Source of the DNA: a virus
Taxonomy: Duplodnaviria > Heunggongvirae > Uroviricota > Caudoviricetes
Length of the DNA stretch: 29,355 nucleotides
Direction: 5' to 3' (one strand)
Virus record (IMG/VR): IMGVR_UViG_2541047722_000019
Shown: piece by piece, positions 1 through 29,355 of the stretch
Layout: every line of letters starts with the position of its first letter
How positions within the stretch are numbered: the first letter of the stretch is position 1
The notes under the pieces: model-generated
The model's database searches: none
Told to the model about the DNA's origin: nothing
Seen by the model: only the letters and a program-made list of their open reading frames with translations
Made by a program: the position numbers and the translations under genes

Positions 1-1917
1 GCCTGCCGGCGACCAGTTAATCAGCAACTTACCAATTCCCACAATGCCGCCGTTAAAGGCTTCCTGAATGTCAGCCCAGCGCTGTTTAAACCAACCACTG
101 ACAGCCCCCCAGTTGCGGTAGATAAGGTAAGCTGCTGTCGCGACAGCGGTGATAACGAGACCGATGGGATTCATCATCAGCGCTCGCCCAATCCAGAGAA
201 CGGCACGTGCAGCGCTCATAAAACCGCGAACGAGGCTGCCCGCCAGAACTTTGCTGAGTTTCAGTCCTCCGCTGGTCAGTCGGCTGAATCCAGTGACAAG
301 CCAGCGTAATTTGCCACCTTCTCCGAGTGCGGTAGTCAGTCGATGCCAGTTGGTCCGGAGTAAAACAGTAGTTTTCCAGACGTTCACAAAGGGGGAAATA
401 AGGAGATTCAGCCCCAGTTTGAGACCAATAGTCGCTATCTTAATCGCAAGGAGCGCACTGATGAGCTTAAAAGCCCCACTGACAAATTGCGGGTGAGTCG
501 CTACCCAGTGTTTTGTCCCCTGAATGAGTGGGAGCAGTTCCTGAGTCAGAGAAATAAAAGATGGAGCTAATTGATCGCCCAGCGTAATTGCCAGATCGCG
601 ACTGCTGACCATAAGTGTTTTAGTGGCTTCAAGGGGAGATTTCAGCCGCTGATCATAAGCACTGGCAAGCAAATCGTTATCCGCAGCCCTGAGAGCACCG
701 GCACGGATCTCTCGATATCTGTCCATGTTGGCCAGCATCGGGCGGATAAATGCCATGACCTGCATATCCGCGAACATATCGCCCAGACCAAAGTTTTTCG
801 CCAGAGCCTGAAGTGCCTCATCTCTTGCCGTATCATTCTTTATTTTCATGGCTGATTTGAAGCCGGCCAGCGCTTCGGGGCTTTTGGCATTGAGGTAACG
901 TTCTATAACACTCAACATCCCTTCAATCGGAGAGATCCCCGCAGCTTTATAACTCGCAATAGATCCCTGCAAATCAATACCCAGATCAGCAAACTGTTTC
1001 TGAGTATCGCGGGCAAAAATTTTGGTAAGAAAGTTTTTAAAATTATTGGCTGCTTCGTCGGTGGAACCTGCACCGATTTTTGCTATCTGGAGACTGGCCC
1101 CGATTTCAGCAACAGCCTCTTTTCCACTGGCAAGACCCGCCATCATTGGGGCCAGGGACTGCATCCACTTGACCTGATCCGGGATTTCAAATGACCCCTG
1201 GTCACCGGCATAAGCCATAATATTCTGAACGGCACCAAAATCTCTGGCCGCACCTTTCAGGGAGTTTTGCCAGACTGCGGCCACTTTTGCCCAGTCCTGA
1301 GCAGACGTGCGTGTTGCCGTTGCCGCGCGGGCAATATCCGGCATCAGAAAACCGATATCTGACACATTATCAATATTGTCGCTGATGAGTGAACCCACCG
1401 CCTCCTGCAGCTCATCCTGATACTGATTGTATTTAAGCGCCCAGCCTTTTATCTGTCCGGCAAGTGCATCCCGCGTTTTATTGTCATATTTTGCGGTGAT
1501 CGACATATCAATCATTTTGTCCTGAAAAGACATGGACTGCTGAACGGCAGGGGAAACCGTATGATAAACAGTCTGTGCCATGCCATACGCTTCAATCCCC
1601 TGACCATACAGCGCCATGCGGTTAGCTTTCAGCGCATCACTGGTAGCGGATGCCGCTGACAGACGGCGCTGCTGGCGCTCAATTTGCTCCATGGTGCGGC
1701 TTACCCGCAGCAGCTCGCTGTTGAGATGCTGCATCCGGGAAGAACCCAGTTGACCATAACGTTCTGTTGCACGGGTTAAAGCGTTCTGACGTTCCTGCAG
1801 GCGGCGTGAGGTATCGCTCAGGGAATCAAGCGCACGGCGGGTACCGCTCATTGCAGAACGGAATGTGCTGCCAATCATCCCGCCGATAACAACGCCGACT
1901 GAAAACTGTCCCGACAT
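1..1917 (-). CDS. Tail tape measure protein, N-terminal 639 codons (3' end beyond window)
   Basis: ATG at 1917-1915 preceded by GGAGG; frame stays open to position 1. N-terminus reads MSGQFSVGVVIGGMIGSTFRSAMSGTRRALDSLSD. Sits directly downstream of the frameshifted chaperone pair, as in Mu and P2. Confidence 0.75.
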   Translation of the reverse strand, partial: MSGQFSVGVVIGGMIGSTFRSAMSGTRRALDSLSDTSRRLQERQNALTRATERYGQLGSSRMQHLNSELLRVSRTMEQIERQQRRLSAASATSDALKANRMALYGQGIEAYGMAQTVYHTVSPAVQQSMSFQDKMIDMSITAKYDNKTRDALAGQIKGWALKYNQYQDELQEAVGSLISDNIDNVSDIGFLMPDIARAATATRTSAQDWAKVAAVWQNSLKGAARDFGAVQNIMAYAGDQGSFEIPDQVKWMQSLAPMMAGLASGKEAVAEIGASLQIAKIGAGSTDEAANNFKNFLTKIFARDTQKQFADLGIDLQGSIASYKAAGISPIEGMLSVIERYLNAKSPEALAGFKSAMKIKNDTARDEALQALAKNFGLGDMFADMQVMAFIRPMLANMDRYREIRAGALRAADNDLLASAYDQRLKSPLEATKTLMVSSRDLAITLGDQLAPSFISLTQELLPLIQGTKHWVATHPQFVSGAFKLISALLAIKIATIGLKLGLNLLISPFVNVWKTTVLLRTNWHRLTTALGEGGKLRWLVTGFSRLTSGGLKLSKVLAGSLVRGFMSAARAVLWIGRALMMNPIGLVITAVATAAYLIYRNWGAVSGWFKQRWADIQEAFNGGIVGIGKLLINWSPAG

Positions 1918-1992: not shown

Positions 1993-2089
1993 CTATGATT
2001 TGTCGCCGTACTCGCTTTTGATTTGCTCTTCAGCCTGCTCCAGCCACATCTCCAGATCGTCAGTATCGAGGGCATCAATCTCCCCCGGC
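1993..2089 (-). CDS. Frameshift extension of the tail assembly chaperone (+1/-2 frame relative to 2075..2410)
   Basis: ORF 1993..2250 overlaps the 3' end of ORF 2075..2410 in the +1 frame. Only its distal part (EIDALDTDDLEMWLEQAEEQIKSEYGDKS) looks protein-like. A GGGGG run (plus CCCCC 2082-2086) lies two codons before the upstream stop. Confidence 0.55.
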
Positions 2090-2410
2090 TGAAACCGGAA
2101 CCATCTCGCCAGCAGCCCCTGCGCCTGCGTCAGCGCCCTGGTTGCTCTCACCCATCCCCGTGATGAGCTGAAATCGTTTCTGTAACTGCAGGTAATCAGC
2201 CAGATCCATATTGTCGAGATCTTCCGGGAGAAGACCAGTACTGCGGGCAATCAGCGGTTCGTCCCAGTCTGCCGGGTTTTTGCTGATTTTGCGCACCTGC
2301 TTCAGGTCTTTTACCGTCAGGCGTTTCAGTTCAACCAGCTCAATTCTGGTGCCTGCAGCAGTGGTGAAGGGATAAGACAATTTAAAAGTATCGGATGGGG
2401 TCTGTGACAT
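2075..2410 (-). CDS. Tail assembly chaperone (lambda G / P2 E analogue)
   Basis: 111-aa ORF immediately upstream of the tape measure gene, with AGGAG 8 nt before the ATG and an overlapping downstream ORF in another frame. This is the conserved chaperone arrangement. Confidence 0.65.
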   Translation of the reverse strand: MSQTPSDTFKLSYPFTTAAGTRIELVELKRLTVKDLKQVRKISKNPADWDEPLIARSTGLLPEDLDNMDLADYLQLQKRFQLITGMGESNQGADAGAGAAGEMVPVSAGGD

Positions 2411-2507: not shown

Positions 2508-2789
2508 TCAGCAAGTGCGAAACCCCTTGCAGTTACGCAGGAAAGCGATGAGAAGCGTCTTTCCCTCAGATTTGCCGATGCCGGAGAACCAGTGGTCGGG
2601 AGGCTCCCATGCTTCAATCAAATCCGCCAGTTTGCGGGCCTTTGAACGTGTGCAGTCAATCGGGTCATTGGTTTTACGGGTATTAAAAAGGGTTTCCACC
2701 CCCGGAATATCAAGGAGGGTAAACCACGTACCATTTGACATGCCCAGTGCCGCACATCGTCCTCCTTTATCCGTCAGTTCAACACTCAC
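2508..2789 (-). CDS. Hypothetical tail-region protein (position of Mu gp41/Y)
   Basis: 93-codon ORF with GTG start 2 nt after the tube gene stop, GGGGG 6 nt upstream. The opposite-strand ORF 2515..2808 translates to low-complexity R/S-rich sequence. Confidence 0.4.
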   Translation of the reverse strand: MSVELTDKGGRCAALGMSNGTWFTLLDIPGVETLFNTRKTNDPIDCTRSKARKLADLIEAWEPPDHWFSGIGKSEGKTLLIAFLRNCKGFRTC

Positions 2790-2791
2790 CG

Positions 2792-3313
2792 TCAGCCCCC
2801 GATATTGATACGGTAGTCAGTCAGTTGATCAACACCGCCGACCCGGAAGATGTTGGCCAGATAGTCCAGTTGCAGCAGCTCTTCACCATCCAGTACCTGT
2901 CTGATATACGTGCAGGTGAAGCTACTGGAGAACTCGGCGTTCTCGTGCTGTTTGAACGTCCCCAGCGGGTTCTTCTTGAACATAATCGTCAGGAAGGTGA
3001 CCAGCGGGATTTCGTCAATCAGCCCCTGCGAGCTGTAGCGCTGGACGCTGGAACGACACTGCAGTGCCAGCGACCTGTACGGGTTCGCGGCAGACAGCAT
3101 CGCATCGCGGTAAAAGCTGTTCCATTTGATTTCGCCTTCCAGCTTGTCAAAACCAGCCGGGAGTTCCACCTTACCCACCATCCCCAGCGCCTTGTGTTCC
3201 TGCATAATCATGGAGACATCGGGGAGTTTGACTTCCTCAGCCCGTCCCAGCAGGTTAGTACCATCCAGATAGATGTTGGCATTCGTGATGCGGTTTATCT
3301 CAATCTTTGACAT
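2792..3313 (-). CDS. Tail tube protein (P2 FII / Mu M family)
   Basis: 173 aa; C-terminal CTYIRQVLDGEELLQLDYLANIFRVGGVDQLTDYRINIGG resembles contractile-tail tube proteins. Start overlaps the sheath stop (TGATG). Confidence 0.8.
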   Translation of the reverse strand: MSKIEINRITNANIYLDGTNLLGRAEEVKLPDVSMIMQEHKALGMVGKVELPAGFDKLEGEIKWNSFYRDAMLSAANPYRSLALQCRSSVQRYSSQGLIDEIPLVTFLTIMFKKNPLGTFKQHENAEFSSSFTCTYIRQVLDGEELLQLDYLANIFRVGGVDQLTDYRINIGG

Positions 3314-4740
3314 CAGTTGCCCCCTTTCAGGGTTAACAGGTATTCCGAGGTGATCTCAGTCTCAAACGTCAGTCGCTCCAGCGGCGGTGGTGGCGTATAT
3401 TTGTAGCTCAGCAACAGGTGCCCGGCGGCCAGCTCCGTCTCCGGATTGCGGGCCGGATCAAACCAGCAACGGAAGCCCAGTACCGCACCATCACCAGTCA
3501 TTTTGCGACCGTAGGCGTTGACCGACTCCGTCAGTGCATCAATCAGCGCCTGAGTAATCGGCATGTCGATGTACTGCTGGCTGAAATAACGAATGGACTC
3601 GTTGATCACATCACCGGTGCGGCGAACGTTCTCAAAGTTACGCATATGGGTGACCGTTGGCCATGCTGCCGTCCGGTTACCCCACAGACGAAGGCCGCTG
3701 CCGTAACTGCTGAATACCGTGGTGATCCCCTGTTCGTTAAGCAGGTTCACCTCACTCTGCGGGTCATCAATCATCGCGGACAGCTGGCGCTCCACGCCGG
3801 TGATCCCCAGAATCTCCTGATTGGAGGATGACCACCAGTAGCCCTTGTCCAGATCGACTCTGGCACGCAGACCTGCTGCACGCTGGCTGAGCGGCTCCAG
3901 ACGCTCTGTGTTTGTCACCGGGTCATATACCTTCACATGCGGATAGCACAGACGGACGCGGTCGGAGCTGGTATTGAAGTTGATGGTGCCTTCCGGGCCA
4001 CGACCTGCCAGAGCCTGTGCAAAGGTGGTACCGACAGGCGCATCAATGTAGGTTACCGCGCCCAGCTTCTCTGCCATGGCGATAAGCTCAACTGCGACAC
4101 TCTTCTGGGTGCAGAACACCGGCGCAATCAGAATTTTGGCGAAATAGCCGTACAGGTTGAAGCTGTCGTTAAGCAGCTTCATGCCGGTTCGGTTTCCGGC
4201 GCTGTTCACCCCGCCGATGATGTCCGCCGCAGTCACCTTCGACGGGTCCGCGTACTCATAGCTCACCTTCACGCTGCCACCGGCCTCAATAGCCTTGCCC
4301 AGGTTCGTGAGCACACCCGCCTGCGCATCAACACGGTAGTCCGTGTTCGCCGTGTGGGTGGTGCTGCCTTCACTGTTTTTCACCACCACATTAGCGACAA
4401 CCGGATGCGCCAGTCTGGCCTGCCCTGTCGATTTGTCAAAGGTAACCACCTCATCCTCGATCGCCGTTTTATGTTTCGCCGGGTCGAGGACGTTAATGAC
4501 CAGAACGGTGCCTGCACCATGGTCATAAATCGCATCCAGCGCCTGCGGAATGGTAAAGCCGGTGAACTGGCTGCCAAATGCCGCTGCGTCTTTCTCAGAC
4601 AGGCACTGTACCAGCGTATTGACATCCCCCATCGGGGCGGTACCAATCAGGCCAATAACGGCAGATTTCACCGTTTTAACCGGGCGGGCACCGTTTTCCA
4701 CCTCAATGGTTTCGGGACCATGCAGATAGTTAGCTGCCAT
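3313..4740 (-). CDS. Tail sheath protein
   Basis: 475 aa, GGAGG 7 nt upstream of ATG, immediately upstream of the tube gene. Sheath-like motifs GYWWSSSN and RLWGNRT. Confidence 0.8.
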   Translation of the reverse strand: MAANYLHGPETIEVENGARPVKTVKSAVIGLIGTAPMGDVNTLVQCLSEKDAAAFGSQFTGFTIPQALDAIYDHGAGTVLVINVLDPAKHKTAIEDEVVTFDKSTGQARLAHPVVANVVVKNSEGSTTHTANTDYRVDAQAGVLTNLGKAIEAGGSVKVSYEYADPSKVTAADIIGGVNSAGNRTGMKLLNDSFNLYGYFAKILIAPVFCTQKSVAVELIAMAEKLGAVTYIDAPVGTTFAQALAGRGPEGTINFNTSSDRVRLCYPHVKVYDPVTNTERLEPLSQRAAGLRARVDLDKGYWWSSSNQEILGITGVERQLSAMIDDPQSEVNLLNEQGITTVFSSYGSGLRLWGNRTAAWPTVTHMRNFENVRRTGDVINESIRYFSQQYIDMPITQALIDALTESVNAYGRKMTGDGAVLGFRCWFDPARNPETELAAGHLLLSYKYTPPPPLERLTFETEITSEYLLTLKGGN

Positions 4741-17386: not shown

Positions 17387-18151
17387 ATGAAAATGAAGAC
17401 ATTACCCATCGTTCCATGGATTGGTGGCAAACGTCGCCTGGCAAAACACATCCTGCCGCTGTTTCCGGCGCATGAATGTTATGTGGAGCCGTTTTGTGGG
17501 GCAGCAGCGCTCTATTTTCTTAAGACACCCGGCAAGATCGAAGTCATCAATGATATCAACGGTGAACTGGTGAATCTGTACCGGGTGGTAAAGCATCACC
17601 TGGAAGAATTTGTCCGCCAGTTCAAATGGGCGCTGGTCAGCCGTCAGATCTACAAATGGCTGCAGATCACCCCGGAAGAAACACTGACGGATATCCAGCG
17701 TGCGGCACGGTTCTACTACCTTCAGAAGCAGGCGTTTGGCGGCAAGGTGGCAGAGCACAGCTTCGGTACCTCCACCACATCCCCGCCACGCTTCAACCTG
17801 CTGCGTATTGAAGAAGAACTGTCAGCAGCACACCTGCGGCTTTCCAGAACAGTCATAGAACACATGGACTGGCAACAGTGCATTGAGCGTTATGATCGTC
17901 CGCACACACTGTTCTACTGCGACCCACCGTACCTGGGTACGGAAGGCTATGGTGTGGATTTTCCTGAAGGGAACTACTCGCGGCTGGCAGAGCTGGCCCG
18001 GTGCATCAGAGGAAAAATGATAATTTCGGTGAACGATATCCCACAGATGCGCGAGGTGTTCACTGGACTGAACATACAGACAGTGAACATCAACTACAGT
18101 CTGGCGGGGAAATCTACGCCGCGCCGTGAACTGGTAATCTGCAACTTCTGA
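17387..18151 (+). CDS. dam: N6-adenine DNA methyltransferase, Dam family (orphan, no adjacent restriction gene)
   Basis: N-terminal WIGGKRRL and VEPFCGAAALYF (SAM-binding motif I) plus FYCDPPY catalytic motif. 254 aa, close to E. coli Dam in size and motif order. Confidence 0.85.
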   Translation: MKMKTLPIVPWIGGKRRLAKHILPLFPAHECYVEPFCGAAALYFLKTPGKIEVINDINGELVNLYRVVKHHLEEFVRQFKWALVSRQIYKWLQITPEETLTDIQRAARFYYLQKQAFGGKVAEHSFGTSTTSPPRFNLLRIEEELSAAHLRLSRTVIEHMDWQQCIERYDRPHTLFYCDPPYLGTEGYGVDFPEGNYSRLAELARCIRGKMIISVNDIPQMREVFTGLNIQTVNINYSLAGKSTPRRELVICNF

Positions 18152-20181: not shown

Positions 20182-21951
20182 ATGAATGCTGCCCTGACTG
20201 AACGACTGGTTTATGTCGCCCGCGCGGCACGTGACGCGGGGCATGGTAAACGCGGCGCAGTATACGACGCTGCCTGTGCTGAACTTGGCATGTCCCGCGC
20301 CACTCTGCTGCGCAGGCTGAAGGAGGTATCTGTGACTGATAAACGCAAAAAACGCGCCGATGCCGGGCGCAGCGCCCTGACCCGCGACGAAGCCGCGCTG
20401 ATATCTGCCACACTGCGTGAGGCCACCCGCAAGAACGGTAAGCGTCTCTATTCCATCGCGGATGCAGTGGAAACCCTGCGGGCTAACGGCTTTATATCCG
20501 CAGGCAGAACAGATGAAACCACCGGTGAGTTTTTCCCGTTGTCCGAAGATGCCATCAGCCGAGCCCTGCGTAACTATGGCCTGCACCCGGAACAACTGGA
20601 TGCCCCTGCGCCGCATACCGAAGTGGCCAGTCTGCATCCCAATCATGTCTGGCAGATTGACGCCTCACTCTGCACGCTTTACTACCTGAGCAATGGACAT
20701 AAAGGGCTGCAGGTGATGGACAGCGCGAAGTTCTACAAGAACAAGCCCGCTAACCTTGCCCGTATCGCCAGTGACCGCGTGTGGAGTTACGAGATTACCG
20801 ACCATGCCAGCGGCTGGATTTACGTTGAGTATGTGACGGGCGCGGAATCAGGTGAGAACCTGTGTTCTGTGCTTATCAACGCCATGCAGGAGCGTGGCGG
20901 CGCAGACGTGCTGCACGGTGTGCCGAAAATACTCTATCTCGACCCCGGCTCGGCAAACACCGCGGGTATGACGAAAAACATGTGCCGCTCACTGGGCATC
21001 GACCTGATAGCGCACAAGCCGCATAACGCCCGCGCCACCGGACAGGTGGAAAAGGCGCGGGACATTATCGAACGCAAGCTGGAGCCGGGTCTGAAGTTCC
21101 GGCCGGTTCACAGTCTGGAAGAACTCAACGCGCTGGCCGCGAAATGGCGCAGCCACTTTAACGCCACGGCTGTTCACAGCCGCCACGGTAAAACCCGCAC
21201 GGATATCTGGCTGAAGATTACTGCTGAGCAGCTGAAAAAAGCGCCTTCCGTTGAGGTATGTCGTGAACTGGCTGTGGCGGCACCAGAACTCCGCAAAGTC
21301 ACGCCAAAACTTCGTGTCTCGTTCCGGGGCACTGAATTTGACGTATCAACGGTACCGGGCGTACTGGTTGGTGAAAAACTGATGATTACCCGTAACCCGT
21401 GGCGCAGCGATGTGGCACAGGTGGTTCTGACCGGTGAGGACGGCCACGAGACGTTCTTCCTGGTCGAAGAGGTCAGAAAGAACGAGTTTGGCTTTGCTGA
21501 AGGCGCGGCGGTATTTGGCGAAAGTTACAAAGCCCTGCCGGAAACCCCGGCGCAGATGGCGGCAAAAGAAACCGAAGCGCTGGTCACCGGTACAGACAAC
21601 GCCGCAGATGCAGCTGCCGCACGCAAGGCGAAGGCGCTGCCGTTCGGCGGGCGGCTTGACCCGTATAAACATATCGACGACACCACACTTCCGGCCTATA
21701 TGCCGAAGCGTGGTCAGGCCTCTGACGTACGCGGGCCGCGCACTGAACAACGTCCCATGACTTATGTGGAGGCCGCGAAAGCCCTGCGCGATAAGTTCAG
21801 CGCCAACGGCTTTACCTGGACGCCGGAACATTACCGCCAGTTAACGGCACAGTATCCGGACGGCGTACCGGAAGCCGCACTGGATGAAGTCATGGCCACG
21901 CTGACCACGCCGGCCCGCAGCAGCGTTATCAGTATTGTTAACGGCAACTGA
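20182..21951 (+). CDS. DDE transposase (retroviral-integrase fold)
   Basis: 589 aa. Catalytic triad candidates D in HVWQIDAS, D in LYLDPGS and E in GQVEKARD, with exactly 35 residues between the second D and the E. GGAGG SD. Confidence 0.85.
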   Translation: MNAALTERLVYVARAARDAGHGKRGAVYDAACAELGMSRATLLRRLKEVSVTDKRKKRADAGRSALTRDEAALISATLREATRKNGKRLYSIADAVETLRANGFISAGRTDETTGEFFPLSEDAISRALRNYGLHPEQLDAPAPHTEVASLHPNHVWQIDASLCTLYYLSNGHKGLQVMDSAKFYKNKPANLARIASDRVWSYEITDHASGWIYVEYVTGAESGENLCSVLINAMQERGGADVLHGVPKILYLDPGSANTAGMTKNMCRSLGIDLIAHKPHNARATGQVEKARDIIERKLEPGLKFRPVHSLEELNALAAKWRSHFNATAVHSRHGKTRTDIWLKITAEQLKKAPSVEVCRELAVAAPELRKVTPKLRVSFRGTEFDVSTVPGVLVGEKLMITRNPWRSDVAQVVLTGEDGHETFFLVEEVRKNEFGFAEGAAVFGESYKALPETPAQMAAKETEALVTGTDNAADAAAARKAKALPFGGRLDPYKHIDDTTLPAYMPKRGQASDVRGPRTEQRPMTYVEAAKALRDKFSANGFTWTPEHYRQLTAQYPDGVPEAALDEVMATLTTPARSSVISIVNGN

Positions 21952-21961
21952 GGAGGGAAAC

Positions 21962-23128
21962 ATGCTGGTACTGAAGCAGCAACTGAAAGAAGCCCGTATT
22001 CCACAGGCGGTGGTGGCGAGAGCTGTCGATGTTTCTGAGGCCACGCTGGCCCAGATTGTGAATCATAACGCGTGGCCCCGCACCAGCCCCGGAGAAGTGC
22101 GCCGGCGTCTTGCGTCCTGGCTGGAAAGTCAGGGGATTGATACAACGAAGAGTTTTGATGCTGTACAGGGCGCGGCCACGCCCCGTACAGCGGGTACCAC
22201 AGATAAAACGAGCCTCAGTGAGGAAGAGAATATGTTACTCAAAAAACAGGTGTTATTTCCAGCAACCAAAAAAGCGTTTGGTCTTTTCCGTGACCCGTTC
22301 GCCGACGAAGCCATGCAGGGTTCTGATGATGTGTTCACCACCCCGGATATTCGCTACGTGCGTGAGGCGTTGTACCAGACAGCCCGTCATGGTGGGTTTA
22401 TGGCCGTCATCGGTGAGTCCGGTGCGGGTAAATCCACGCTGCGCCGCGACCTGACTGAACGTATCAACCGCGAGAATGCGCCGGTAATTGTTATCGAGCC
22501 ATACATCATCGCTATGGAAGACAACGATGTGAAAGGGAAAACCCTGAAGGCAGCAGCGATTGCCGAAGCCATTATCAGTACCATCGCACCACTGGAAAGC
22601 ATCAGACGCAGTCAGGACGCCCGCTTTCGCCAGTTGCATCGCGTCCTGAAAGACAGCAGCCAGGCGGGGTTCAGCCACGTTCTGGTGATTGAGGAGGCCC
22701 ACAGTCTGCCCATTCCGACACTGAAACACCTCAAACGCTTTTTTGAGCTGGAGTCCGGTTTCAAAAAACTGCTGTCCATCGTGCTGATTGGCCAGCCGGA
22801 ACTGGCGACAAAACTGTCTGAACGCAATATGGAAGTCCGTGAAGTCGTTCAGCGCTGTGAGGTGGTCGAACTTCTGCCTCTGGACAATAACCTTGAAGAG
22901 TTTCTGACGTTCAAACTGCAACGGGCCGGTAAACAACTGACGGACATTATGGACGCCAGCGCAGTGGATGCCATACGTGCCCGCCTGAGCAATCCGGGAA
23001 GTCATCGTAAAAATATGGTCAGCCTGCTGTATCCGCTGGCCGTCAGTAACCTGGTAATAGCCGCCATGAATCTGGCCGCTGAAATCGGGGTTCCACAGGT
23101 CAACGCTGACGTTGTCAAAGGGGTTTAA
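21962..23128 (+). CDS. Transposition ATPase (MuB / TniB-like)
   Basis: Walker A GESGAGKST and Walker B-like HVLVIEEAH. ATG 21962 with GAGGAGGGA upstream (the track ORF starts at TTG 21935). Immediately downstream of the transposase. Confidence 0.8.
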   Translation: MLVLKQQLKEARIPQAVVARAVDVSEATLAQIVNHNAWPRTSPGEVRRRLASWLESQGIDTTKSFDAVQGAATPRTAGTTDKTSLSEEENMLLKKQVLFPATKKAFGLFRDPFADEAMQGSDDVFTTPDIRYVREALYQTARHGGFMAVIGESGAGKSTLRRDLTERINRENAPVIVIEPYIIAMEDNDVKGKTLKAAAIAEAIISTIAPLESIRRSQDARFRQLHRVLKDSSQAGFSHVLVIEEAHSLPIPTLKHLKRFFELESGFKKLLSIVLIGQPELATKLSERNMEVREVVQRCEVVELLPLDNNLEEFLTFKLQRAGKQLTDIMDASAVDAIRARLSNPGSHRKNMVSLLYPLAVSNLVIAAMNLAAEIGVPQVNADVVKGV

Positions 23129-27819: not shown

Positions 27820-27865
27820 GTTATTTATCTCACGGATCCCCCTTCATTTATCTCATGTCTGATCA
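27820..27865. repeat. Prophage terminus with direct repeats (candidate transposase-binding sites)
   Basis: ATTTATCTCA occurs at 27823-27832 and 27846-27855, with a related CTTATCTATCG at ~27750. On the host-facing strand the element end reads 5'-TGATCAGACATGAGATAAATG. Confidence 0.45.
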
Positions 27866-29355
27866 CTGCCGTGAGCAGAGGCGCGCAGGATCGACCGTAG
27901 TTGTGTGGTAAACAACGACGCGTATTCTTCATAAATACGCACCGCGCGATAACCGAGGAACGGGTTAGCTTCTGCCGGAATGTTCAGATAATCAACGGGT
28001 TTATCACCGCCAATGTCCATAGTGCGCACAATAATGCTGCGTCCGTTGGCAGACTCCAGCGCCTGACAAAAAATGTTGTACAGCTCGCTTTCGCCCGGTG
28101 CACTGGTGCGATCCATATAGAGCATTTCAGTGCGGAACAAACCAACGCCTTCCGCACCATTGCCGAATGCGGCCTGCGCTTCCACGGAGTGAGCGATGTT
28201 AGCGGCAATTTCAATGCGGATACCGTCAGCGGTACGCGCTTGCTGGGTCAGCCAGACACGCTGTTGCTCACGCAGAGCGTCCTGTACGCGGGCTTCTTGC
28301 TGATAATAACGGGCCACGGATTCCCCTGGCTCAACCACAATCGCCCCTGCGTTGCCGTCGATATAAATCGTCTGATGCTGCCACGGAGTAAGGGCAGCAA
28401 TATCCACACCTACCAGCGTCGGAATGTTGAACGAACGGGCAAGGATCACAGTATGTGAGGTGGTGCCGCCACTTTTCAGTAACAGACCTTTGAGATGATT
28501 TTTATCCAGTTCGAGGAACTGGCTGGGGGTCAGTTCATCAGCCATACAAATGGCGGGCTGCGTCAGTTTGCCCGGTGCCGGGAAGCGTTGCTCACCGTAG
28601 ATTTGCTGGAGTAACTGGAAGCAGACGTCGCGTACGTCCAGGGCACGTTCTTGCAGGTAGCTGCTGCTGGAACGGGCGAACTCTTCGCAAAAGTGATTCG
28701 CACTGGCAACAATCGCTTCGGCGCAGCTTAATCCGGCGCTGACACCTGCCAGTAAATGTTCGCGCAGGGAAGTATCGCCAGCCAGGGATCGGTGCGCTTC
28801 CAGAATCGCGCTGGTAGCACCGTCGCTATCCAGCAGACGAAACTCTATGTTTTTCAGTACCAGCGTCAGACCGTTTTCCAGTGCGGATTGTTCGGCGTCA
28901 ACGCCTTTGGCTGCGGGAAGATTACCCAGCGCATTGAGATCTAAAGAAGAGATCGGCGTCAGAATGCCGCCTGCGCTACCACTGCACACGGTGCGAGCAC
29001 GGATAATTTGCGGATTCAGATTGGTCAGTGAAACCGGCAGTGGTTCCAGTTCGTCAGATTTTACTTCCGCCAGCGGTGCGTCGCAGTGGGGGAATTCATC
29101 GCGCAGCCATTGGCTTAAACGCTGGTACGCTTCCTGTTCGTCGGCCCCGGAAATCAGTAACTGGCAGTTATCGCCCACCAGCGTATCGGTGCCAATCAGC
29201 GCAAGGGCGCTTTTGGCGTTGCCCTTGCGGTCAGTGCGCAGGTTATGCCACTCAATTTGTGATGAAAAAGTATTACACAGCGTTTCAACGTGGCTTGCCG
29301 GACGCGCATGGACGCCGTTAGGTAGCTCACAAATAAATTCCACAATCAGGGCCAT
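27866..29355 (-). pseudogene. ptsA: Host PTS multiphosphoryl transfer protein (HPr-Enzyme I fusion), 5' ~1.5 kb only, interrupted by prophage insertion
   Basis: HPr signature GVHARPASH at the N-terminus, EI phospho-His motif GGTTSHTVILARSFNIPTLVG, and PEP-utilising motifs GAEGVGLFRTEMLYMDR and NPFLGYRAVRIY. The reading frame ends at ...LRASAHGSDQT*, mid-domain. Symbol is from recollection of the E. coli PtsA/FrwA N-terminus; a FryA-type paralogue is not excluded. Confidence 0.6.

Follow-up and report, generated by a model that had tools for sequence, protein, structure and literature searches.

The stretch of DNA analysed here (29,355 nucleotides, referred to below as the window) is a transposable BcepMu-like prophage, as it carries a Mu-type portal gene, an rve transposase gene and a gene for a MuB-like AAA protein, with a host gene at its right end. 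It is 99.6% identical to Escherichia phage PhiKM (Bcepmuvirus), and the locus discussed in this study occurs in about 12% of complete E. coli genomes (641/5426). Since the right end is filled by a host gene for a PTS enzyme I/HPr fusion, the junction of prophage and host is expected near 27.5-27.8 kb. On the minus strand, the tail genes follow one another in the order sheath, tube, DUF7739 ORF, chaperone and tape measure (Table 1). The chaperone pair is accordingly placed between the tube and the tape measure genes, matching the arrangement of the lambda G/GT type. The 93-aa ORF located between the tube and chaperone genes is found in E. coli, Klebsiella and PhiKM records, whereas P2 and Mu lack a corresponding gene there.

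Table 1. Position of the tail genes, of the elements of the chaperone locus and of other genes within the window
Feature	Position	Strand	Remarks
Tape measure protein gene	1..1917	minus	ATG at 1917; continues past the left window end
+1-frame ORF	open 2250 to 1993	minus	+1 (equivalently -2) relative to ORF A
Predicted +1-frame extension	1993..2169	minus	58 codons + TAG 1995..1993: SSSRGWVRATRALTQAQGLLARWFRFQPGEIDALDTDDLEMWLEQAEEQIKSEYGDKS
P2 E'-like domain	2014..2112	minus	residues 100-132 of the predicted fusion, LARWFRFQPGEIDALDTDDLEMWLEQAEEQIKS; PF06528 match below cut-off
GGGGG run	2082..2086	minus	frame 0 GGG GGA; +1 frame CC(G GGG G)AG = Pro-Gly-Glu; within FRFQPGE motif
Proposed +1 shift site CGA_UUU_C	2176..2170	minus	CGA 2176..2174 (Arg79), UUU 2173..2171 (Phe80), C 2170
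ORF A, short-form tail assembly chaperone	2410..2075	minus	111 aa including the frame-0 tail; TGA 2077..2075
Predicted long form	join(2410..2171, 2169..1993)	minus	138 aa: ...LQLQKRF/SSSRGWVRATRALTQAQGLLARWFRFQPGEIDALDTDDLEMWLEQAEEQIKSEYGDKS
93-aa ORF between tube and chaperone genes	2508..2789	minus	phrog_1239, E = 4.7e-48; weak PF24881 DUF7739
Tail tube gene	2792..3313	minus	PF04985 Phage_tube, E = 2.9e-53; P2 FII-type
Sheath gene	3313..4740	minus	PF04984 + PF17482 sheath domains
Dam-type methyltransferase gene	17387..18151		
rve transposase gene	20182..21951		
MuB-like AAA protein gene	21935..23128		
Host PTS enzyme I/HPr fusion gene	27853-29355		right window end

The upstream member of the pair, ORF A, belongs to the P2 gpE / Mu gp41 family of tail assembly chaperones (PF10109). 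The PF10109 profile (Phage_TAC_7), described as 'tail assembly chaperone proteins E, or 41 or 14', covers residues 8-81 with E = 5.5e-21 and 74.8 bits (cut-off 25), and the protein also matches phrog_166 'tail protein' (E = 2.8e-32). RefSeq labels it 'phage tail assembly protein', and in E. coli genomes it is the only one of the two ORFs that is annotated, while the gene that follows carries the name 'phage tail tape measure protein' both in RefSeq and in phage PhiKM. The original prediction, made from the letters of this stretch, had described two overlapping ORFs of a tail assembly chaperone ahead of the tape measure gene. The overlap is indeed there, and the identity of the chaperone is borne out by the PF10109 match together with the tube and tape measure context.

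In order to follow the second ORF, 31 loci were gathered from genomes and 160 from viral contigs, and records from BcepMu, Ralstonia, Pseudomonas, Pasteurella and Salmonella were added. The comparisons presented here concern 149 distinct homologous loci, reaching down to about 35% protein identity and including Burkholderia phages BcepMu and phiE255, Pseudomonas phage Komp_PAO1_1 and Ralstonia phage YO107_2; per-codon counts and the positions of frame-0 stops come from 43 representative enterobacterial sequences. All 149 distinct loci retain the +1 ORF; because they share phylogeny, they are not to be read as 149 independent trials. In the enteric set, the ORF reaches 27-34 codons beyond the stop of ORF A. 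The overlap is far above chance, with the +1 frame, which is the frame that had been predicted, retained in every homologue examined and the -1 frame not conserved.

The peptide encoded in the +1 frame matches phrog_8286 (E = 1.8e-25), and an HMM built from the extensions finds a match in the +1 frame of all loci. On the predicted fusion, PF06528 (Phage_P2_GpE) gives E = 0.0015 with 18.4 bits, which is under the cut-off of 23, the start of the match being about 10 residues ahead of the G run. The homologous extension of Pasteurella phage AFS-2018a, located in the -1 frame, matches the same family at 3.7e-14, and where NCBI calls the +1 ORF separately it is named 'GpE family phage tail protein'. 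Between the upstream +1 stop and the +1-frame Trp86, no conserved +1-frame start codon was found among the 43 representatives. Judging from these comparisons, the conclusion holds that a long form of the chaperone would need ribosomal recoding into the +1 frame, with the extension predicted to encode a P2 E'-like peptide. Tryptic peptides specific for the +1 part of the predicted fusion are GWVR, ALTQAQGLLAR, WFR and FQPGEIDALDTDDLEMWLEQAEEQIK.

The place where the coding constraint moves from one frame to the other was located by a sliding Nei-Gojobori dN/dS (omega) analysis of frame 0 versus the +1 frame. In frame 0, omega stays at 0.1-0.3 up to about codon 80 and exceeds 1 from codon 89, while in the +1 frame it is below 0.6 from about codon 87 and falls to 0.01-0.1 at codons 99-108, which places the switch at approximately codons 80-88. 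Per-codon counts show the same pattern. The +1-frame Trp86 is TGG in 43/43 representatives, and Arg105 of the +1 frame is retained through CGG, AGA or AGG, the frame-0 codon 105 being TAG, CCG, TCG or CAG. Likewise, exchanges such as GCT to CCT, ACT or TCT alter the frame-0 protein and leave that of the +1 frame unchanged. Because omega values and per-codon counts agree, translation of the +1 frame appears to begin some 25 codons ahead of the G run. On its upstream side, this frame is closed by stops, for example at +1 codon 74 in locus L008. Within the selected part, the block GCUGCUGGCGAG(G/A)UGGUU (2078-2125, minus strand) is nearly invariant in nucleotides even at about 50% protein identity, and across 2078-2125 synonymous variation in the +1 frame is lowered as well. 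This invariance is mostly attributable to strong +1 selection, though perhaps not wholly.

Close to the switch, about 30 codons upstream of the GGGGG run, lies the sequence CGA_UUU_C. The aligned phenylalanine codon is TTT followed by C in all of the 149 distinct loci, whereas the other Phe codons of the same ORFs are divided between 148 TTT and 142 TTC (about 50% TTT). The bias is also evident in the GC-rich subset, where other Phe codons comprise 31 TTT vs 58 TTC (35% TTT) and the codon at the site is TTT in 42/42. Among the enteric representatives, codon 79 is CGA in 42/43 and codon 80 is TTT in 43/43 and never TTC; together with the next C, these are the sole invariant nucleotides in the permitted interval. 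The frame-0 stop is found 7 to 36 codons past the Phe codon, and the nearest +1-frame stop on the upstream side is 11 nt before TTT. The interval is particularly short in loci L141, L142 and L146-L149, where both frames are open only across GAC TCC/ACC TTT CGC AGC ATG GTG GAC AAC TGA, that is, from nt -8 to +21 around TTT (about 10 codons), and where UUU_C is the sole site allowing re-pairing. The +1 peptide is conserved straight after the Phe, in the form of FAAW, FGNWW, FSSSRGW and similar motifs. In the Pasteurella relative with the -1-frame extension, the aligned position is occupied by TTA, and G_GGA_AAG is present instead. The context of the site is CGA_UUU_CAR in enterobacterial loci, including the window, and NNN_UUU_CGN elsewhere, with UCC_UUU_CGC in the BcepMu type.

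Taken together, these comparisons suggest that the long form is likely made by a +1 slip of tRNA-Phe at CGA_UUU_C, giving the 138-aa fusion. If the shift sits slightly upstream, +1 coding could account for some of the invariance of codons 79-80; the bracketing loci allow no more than 3 codons for this. No SD-like element was found upstream of UUU_C, the RNA structure 3' of it is not significant (z = -1.27), and the overlap lacks a canonical -1 heptamer, with no U6 or X_XXY_YYZ motif. In frame 0, enterics have CAG after UUU and the other loci mostly CGC, and neither of these is a rare, 'hungry' codon. As no stimulatory element was found, the efficiency of the shift may be low, which would suit a chaperone of which little long form is required.

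In regard to the mechanism, normal decoding would yield the short chaperone, consisting of the PF10109 domain and a dispensable frame-0 tail. A minority of ribosomes would slip +1 at CGA_UUU_C, where the peptidyl-tRNA-Phe (anticodon GAA) would move from UUU to the overlapping UUC and decoding would restart at AGC (2169..2167). Alternatively, tRNA-Phe could enter straight on UUC while the poorly decoded CGA occupies the P site. CGA is decoded through an I:A wobble, and we infer that it contributes to the slip. The product would be the long form, ending in the P2 E'-like domain. On the model of lambda G/GT and P2 E/E+E', short and long forms might together coat the tape measure protein, with the extension recruiting the tube protein and the ratio of the two forms set by the low slip rate. 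In bacteria, UUU_Ynn has been described as especially prone to +1 shifting; sites of the UUU_C type also include that of Yersinia YopN-TyeA and that of influenza A PA-X, which uses UCC_UUU_CGU (PMC5009743). The locus shares with them the slippery tetranucleotide and the lack of obvious RNA structure, and UCC_UUU_CGC of BcepMu is nearly the influenza cassette. On the other hand, the genes and hosts are unrelated, and in enterobacterial loci the awkward Arg codon is located before and not after the Phe codon.

It is also conceivable that individual lineages use sites of their own, namely a prfB-like GUU_UAG after GAGGUG in alleles that end frame 0 with TAG at codon 105, or GGG_N at codon 85 or 98 elsewhere. 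The block GCUGCUGGCGAGGUGGUU is almost invariant in nucleotides, an SD-like GAGGUG immediately adjoins GUU UAG on its 5' side in the TAG alleles, and GGG_N occurs at codon 85 in 38/43 and at codon 98 in 36/43 representatives. However, the re-pairing from GUU to UUU is poor for tRNA-Val, the allele of the window has GAGAUG with no stop there, and the conservation of GCUGCUGGCGAGGUGGUU is largely explained by the very strong +1 selection (omega 0.01-0.1). In distant relatives, frame 0 ends 7-9 codons after the Phe codon, well before the block. The prfB-like arrangement was rejected because both the +1 selection and the distant loci put the shift upstream of it, and GGG_N at either codon was dropped as well, since it is not universal among the 43 and several members do not have it. 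Lineage-specific sites are therefore very unlikely in comparison to the single UUU_C site.

The original prediction had placed the shift at the GGGGG run near the end of ORF A, either as a +1 slip of tRNA-Gly from GGG to GGG or as a -2 slip like that of Mu. The five G are present, but the 'CCCCC 2082-2086' that had been listed beside them is the same five bases on the opposite strand and not a second feature. At the end of frame 0 the codons are GCC GGG GGA GAU UGA, and in the +1 frame CCG GGG GAG AUU GAU (Pro-Gly-Glu-Ile-Asp), giving EIDALDTDDLEMWLEQAEEQIKSEYGDKS. A shift at the run would join frame-0 residues 1-109/110 to EIDALD..., with residues 81-109 reading ...FQLITGMGESNQGADAGAGAAGEMVPVSAG(G)EIDALD...; the junction would be ...EMVPVSAG(G)EIDALDTDDLEMWLEQAEEQIK, and the product would be devoid of ALTQAQGLLAR. 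In the allele of the window, frame 0 is open through the run, the five G permit perfect re-pairing in both +1 and -2 direction, and G5 is present in all relatives whose frame 0 extends to codon 111. Furthermore, the verified site of Mu, CGG GGG CGA, is a G5 as well.

Nevertheless, the overlap is conserved among homologues and the run is not. Frame 0 is terminated by TAG at codon 105 in 20 of the 43 representatives, including the common second E. coli allele, that is, 7 codons before the stop of the window, so the run is out of reach in frame 0. In a further 13/43, TGA at codon 110 comes directly after codon 109 (GGG, GAG or AAG) and removes it, and the rest of the 43, the window included, end at TGA at codon 112. 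Variants of the run among relatives are CCT GGG, CCA GGG, GGT and AGT. A product joined at the run would lose about 25 strongly selected +1 codons upstream of it, and with them the first third or so of the match to the E'-like domain. Unlike the sites of P2 and Mu, the run is found inside the conserved FRFQPGE motif, and in the alignment with Mu the -2 site comes near the Phe80 junction instead. The five G are explained by the Pro-Gly-Glu codons, and GGGGG is not enriched in the window (36 copies vs 73 +/- 10 in shuffles). The run is probably a by-product of the +1 codons CCG GGG GAG and not the shift site. As a mechanism of the whole family, a shift at the run is highly improbable and can be considered largely refuted, although a minor second slip may occur there in the window's own allele, in which frame 0 stays open to the run. 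A slip of the Mu type at UUU_C fares no better, as the tetranucleotide permits re-pairing at +1 but, preceded by CGA, UCC, GUG etc., cannot re-pair at -2.

Several proteins from Logan assemblies (P0004, P0006-P0009 and P0011; L203-L210) show the very junction predicted for the G run, ...VSAGEIDALD..., in a length of 138 aa. Their contigs are short and have the tape measure gene broken into pieces, so they look like homopolymer read errors. This points to sequencing errors at the G run and not to real fused genes or edited transcripts, and these proteins were rejected as support for a junction at the run.

There is only a slight chance that no frameshift takes place and that the +1 ORF is a separate small gene of 45-52 aa with an internal start. 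PGAP and other pipelines do call a CDS of its own, for example P0119 at the GTG of +1 codon 87, with P0121 and P0126 called from other starts, and BcepMu gp42 and CDS0016 of Komp_PAO1_1 are annotated likewise. Yet the annotated starts vary between genomes, and no start is conserved: GTG at +1 codon 87 occurs in only 4/43 and ATG at +1 codon 94 in 20/43 representatives. The conservation of the +1 frame (Trp86, and the FAAW-type motifs after Phe) reaches upstream of every proposed start. In addition, characterised homologues yield E' only in fused form, as E+E' in P2 and as gp41 with its extension in Mu.

Two further candidates were rejected, a -1-frame product, including the UGAUG stop-start overlap, as the -1 ORF has 1 to 71 codons in most relatives (with one outlier of 458), and transcriptional slippage, as T3 and G5 are both shorter than the runs for which slippage is known.

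One locus carries the two parts in a single frame. In Apirhabdus apintestini (L026, CP138906, around position 2220), one nucleotide is missing four codons ahead of CGA TTT, which results in one ORF of 138 aa, and a separate 45-aa GpE protein is still called by NCBI. The fused ORF may represent a natural allele, but decay of the prophage or a faulty assembly could also explain it. The in-frame fusion arises from this 1-nt deletion and is uninformative.

Frameshifting in tail chaperone genes is conserved, with a -1 shift in most phages and a -2 shift in Mu, according to Xu et al. 2004 as cited in PMC5009743 and PMC2628397. The latter was also part of the original prediction, and the GenBank record of Mu (AF083977) indeed marks the product with the note 'verified -2 translational frameshift'. 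With P2, the locus shares the PF10109 N-terminal domain, a probably homologous, PF06528-like extension, the position between the FII tube and T tape measure genes, and a junction just past the N-terminal domain, about 25 residues before the WPPSE/FQPGE motif. It differs in the shift itself, as the annotated P2 E/E+E' site GGU UUU UUG is a -1 site on a U6 run (U_UUU_UUG), while the locus of the window would use UUU_C to enter the +1 frame, and in the PF06528 match, which for the window protein is below the Pfam cut-off. With Mu, it shares the Pfam family name (E / 41 / 14), the Mu-like transposable genome, the relative frame of the extension (+1 being equivalent to -2) and the presence of a G5 run. 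However, the G5 of Mu is at the domain junction, where -2 re-pairing is allowed, whereas that of the window is inside the E' motif, unconserved and often unreachable. By tblastn, no similarity was detectable between the window protein and Mu gp41. In the alignment of long forms, the -1 site of P2 and the -2 site of Mu are within about 4-10 residues of Phe80, and all three are at least 20 residues before the FRFQPGE/WPPSE motif.

The likeness to lambda gpG/gpGT is in the organization: a single start gives rise to two products of different length, and the gene immediately precedes that of the tape measure protein. In lambda, a -1 shift takes place at G_GGA_AAG, and the ratio of the products is set by its low efficiency (PMC5009743). 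The Pasteurella relative of the chaperone family uses this lambda-type sequence. On the other hand, no sequence similarity to the lambda proteins was found, the direction and site of the shift differ, and for the locus studied here the role of the extension is drawn from analogy. Related to this, one E/E' chaperone family appears to join the same two domains by different shifts, -1 in P2 and the Pasteurella phage, -2 in Mu and, if our reading is correct, +1 in the BcepMu-like clade. The direction of the shift would then be evolutionarily interchangeable at one domain junction.

It is likely, on sequence comparison, that the BcepMu-like clade as a whole (Enterobacterales, Burkholderia, Pseudomonas and Ralstonia) makes its long chaperone by +1 shifting at a bare UUU_C with no stimulator. 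If so, the cassette of the clade would be essentially the minimal one of influenza PA-X, and the enterobacterial CGA_UUU_C would exemplify, in natural bacterial sequences, a shift favoured by a codon read through I:A wobble. Present records, including BcepMu gp41/gp42/gp43 and the E. coli prophages in RefSeq, would then mis-describe the chaperone gene. The GenBank record of BcepMu (L005, AY539836, 6603-7364) treats gp42/gp43 as a frameshift pair similar to lambda G/T. Our comparisons indicate that gp41 would be the chaperone and gp42 its +1-frame E'-like extension, joined at UCC_UUU_CGC, and gp43 looks like a spurious GC-rich ORF. No join annotation was present in any phage record found, and the searched literature, leaving aside Xu et al. 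2004 and Summer et al. 2004, holds no description of a +1 chaperone site in BcepMu-like phages, nor data on production of the fusion, its ratio to the short form or its need in tail assembly in these phages.

A shift at a chaperone locus is in itself ordinary, because frameshifting of tail chaperones is textbook knowledge. The useful part is the correction, which moves the proposed site from the G run to UUU_C and sets the direction as +1, in contrast to P2 (-1) and Mu (-2). It also carries a caution, as a recoding site can be misassigned when the homopolymer nearest to the stop is chosen. For annotation, the gain would concern a prophage gene in about 12% of complete E. coli genomes as well as BcepMu and phiE255-type phages, which are considered for Burkholderia work. 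Moreover, about 150 natural sequences become available for studying the upkeep of a low-level +1 slip in the absence of stimulators.

Two hairpins were observed on the minus strand on either side of the chaperone locus. Between the DUF7739 ORF and the chaperone gene, a terminator-like GC hairpin with a T-rich tail is located at 2486-2501 (AGGGGCTCCGGCCCCT TCTTCTTAAT), and expression of the chaperone and tape measure genes could perhaps be reduced by it in comparison to sheath and tube. The other, at 1963-1990 (CAGACAGCCGC-CAGUA-GCGGCUGUUCUG; folding z-score -4.8), is directly 3' of the stop of the +1 ORF and 45 nt before the start of the tape measure gene. A hairpin is retained at this position in relatives with differing stem sequences, followed in some (L096) by a U-tract, and its role between the chaperone and tape measure genes may be that of a stabiliser or of a partial terminator.
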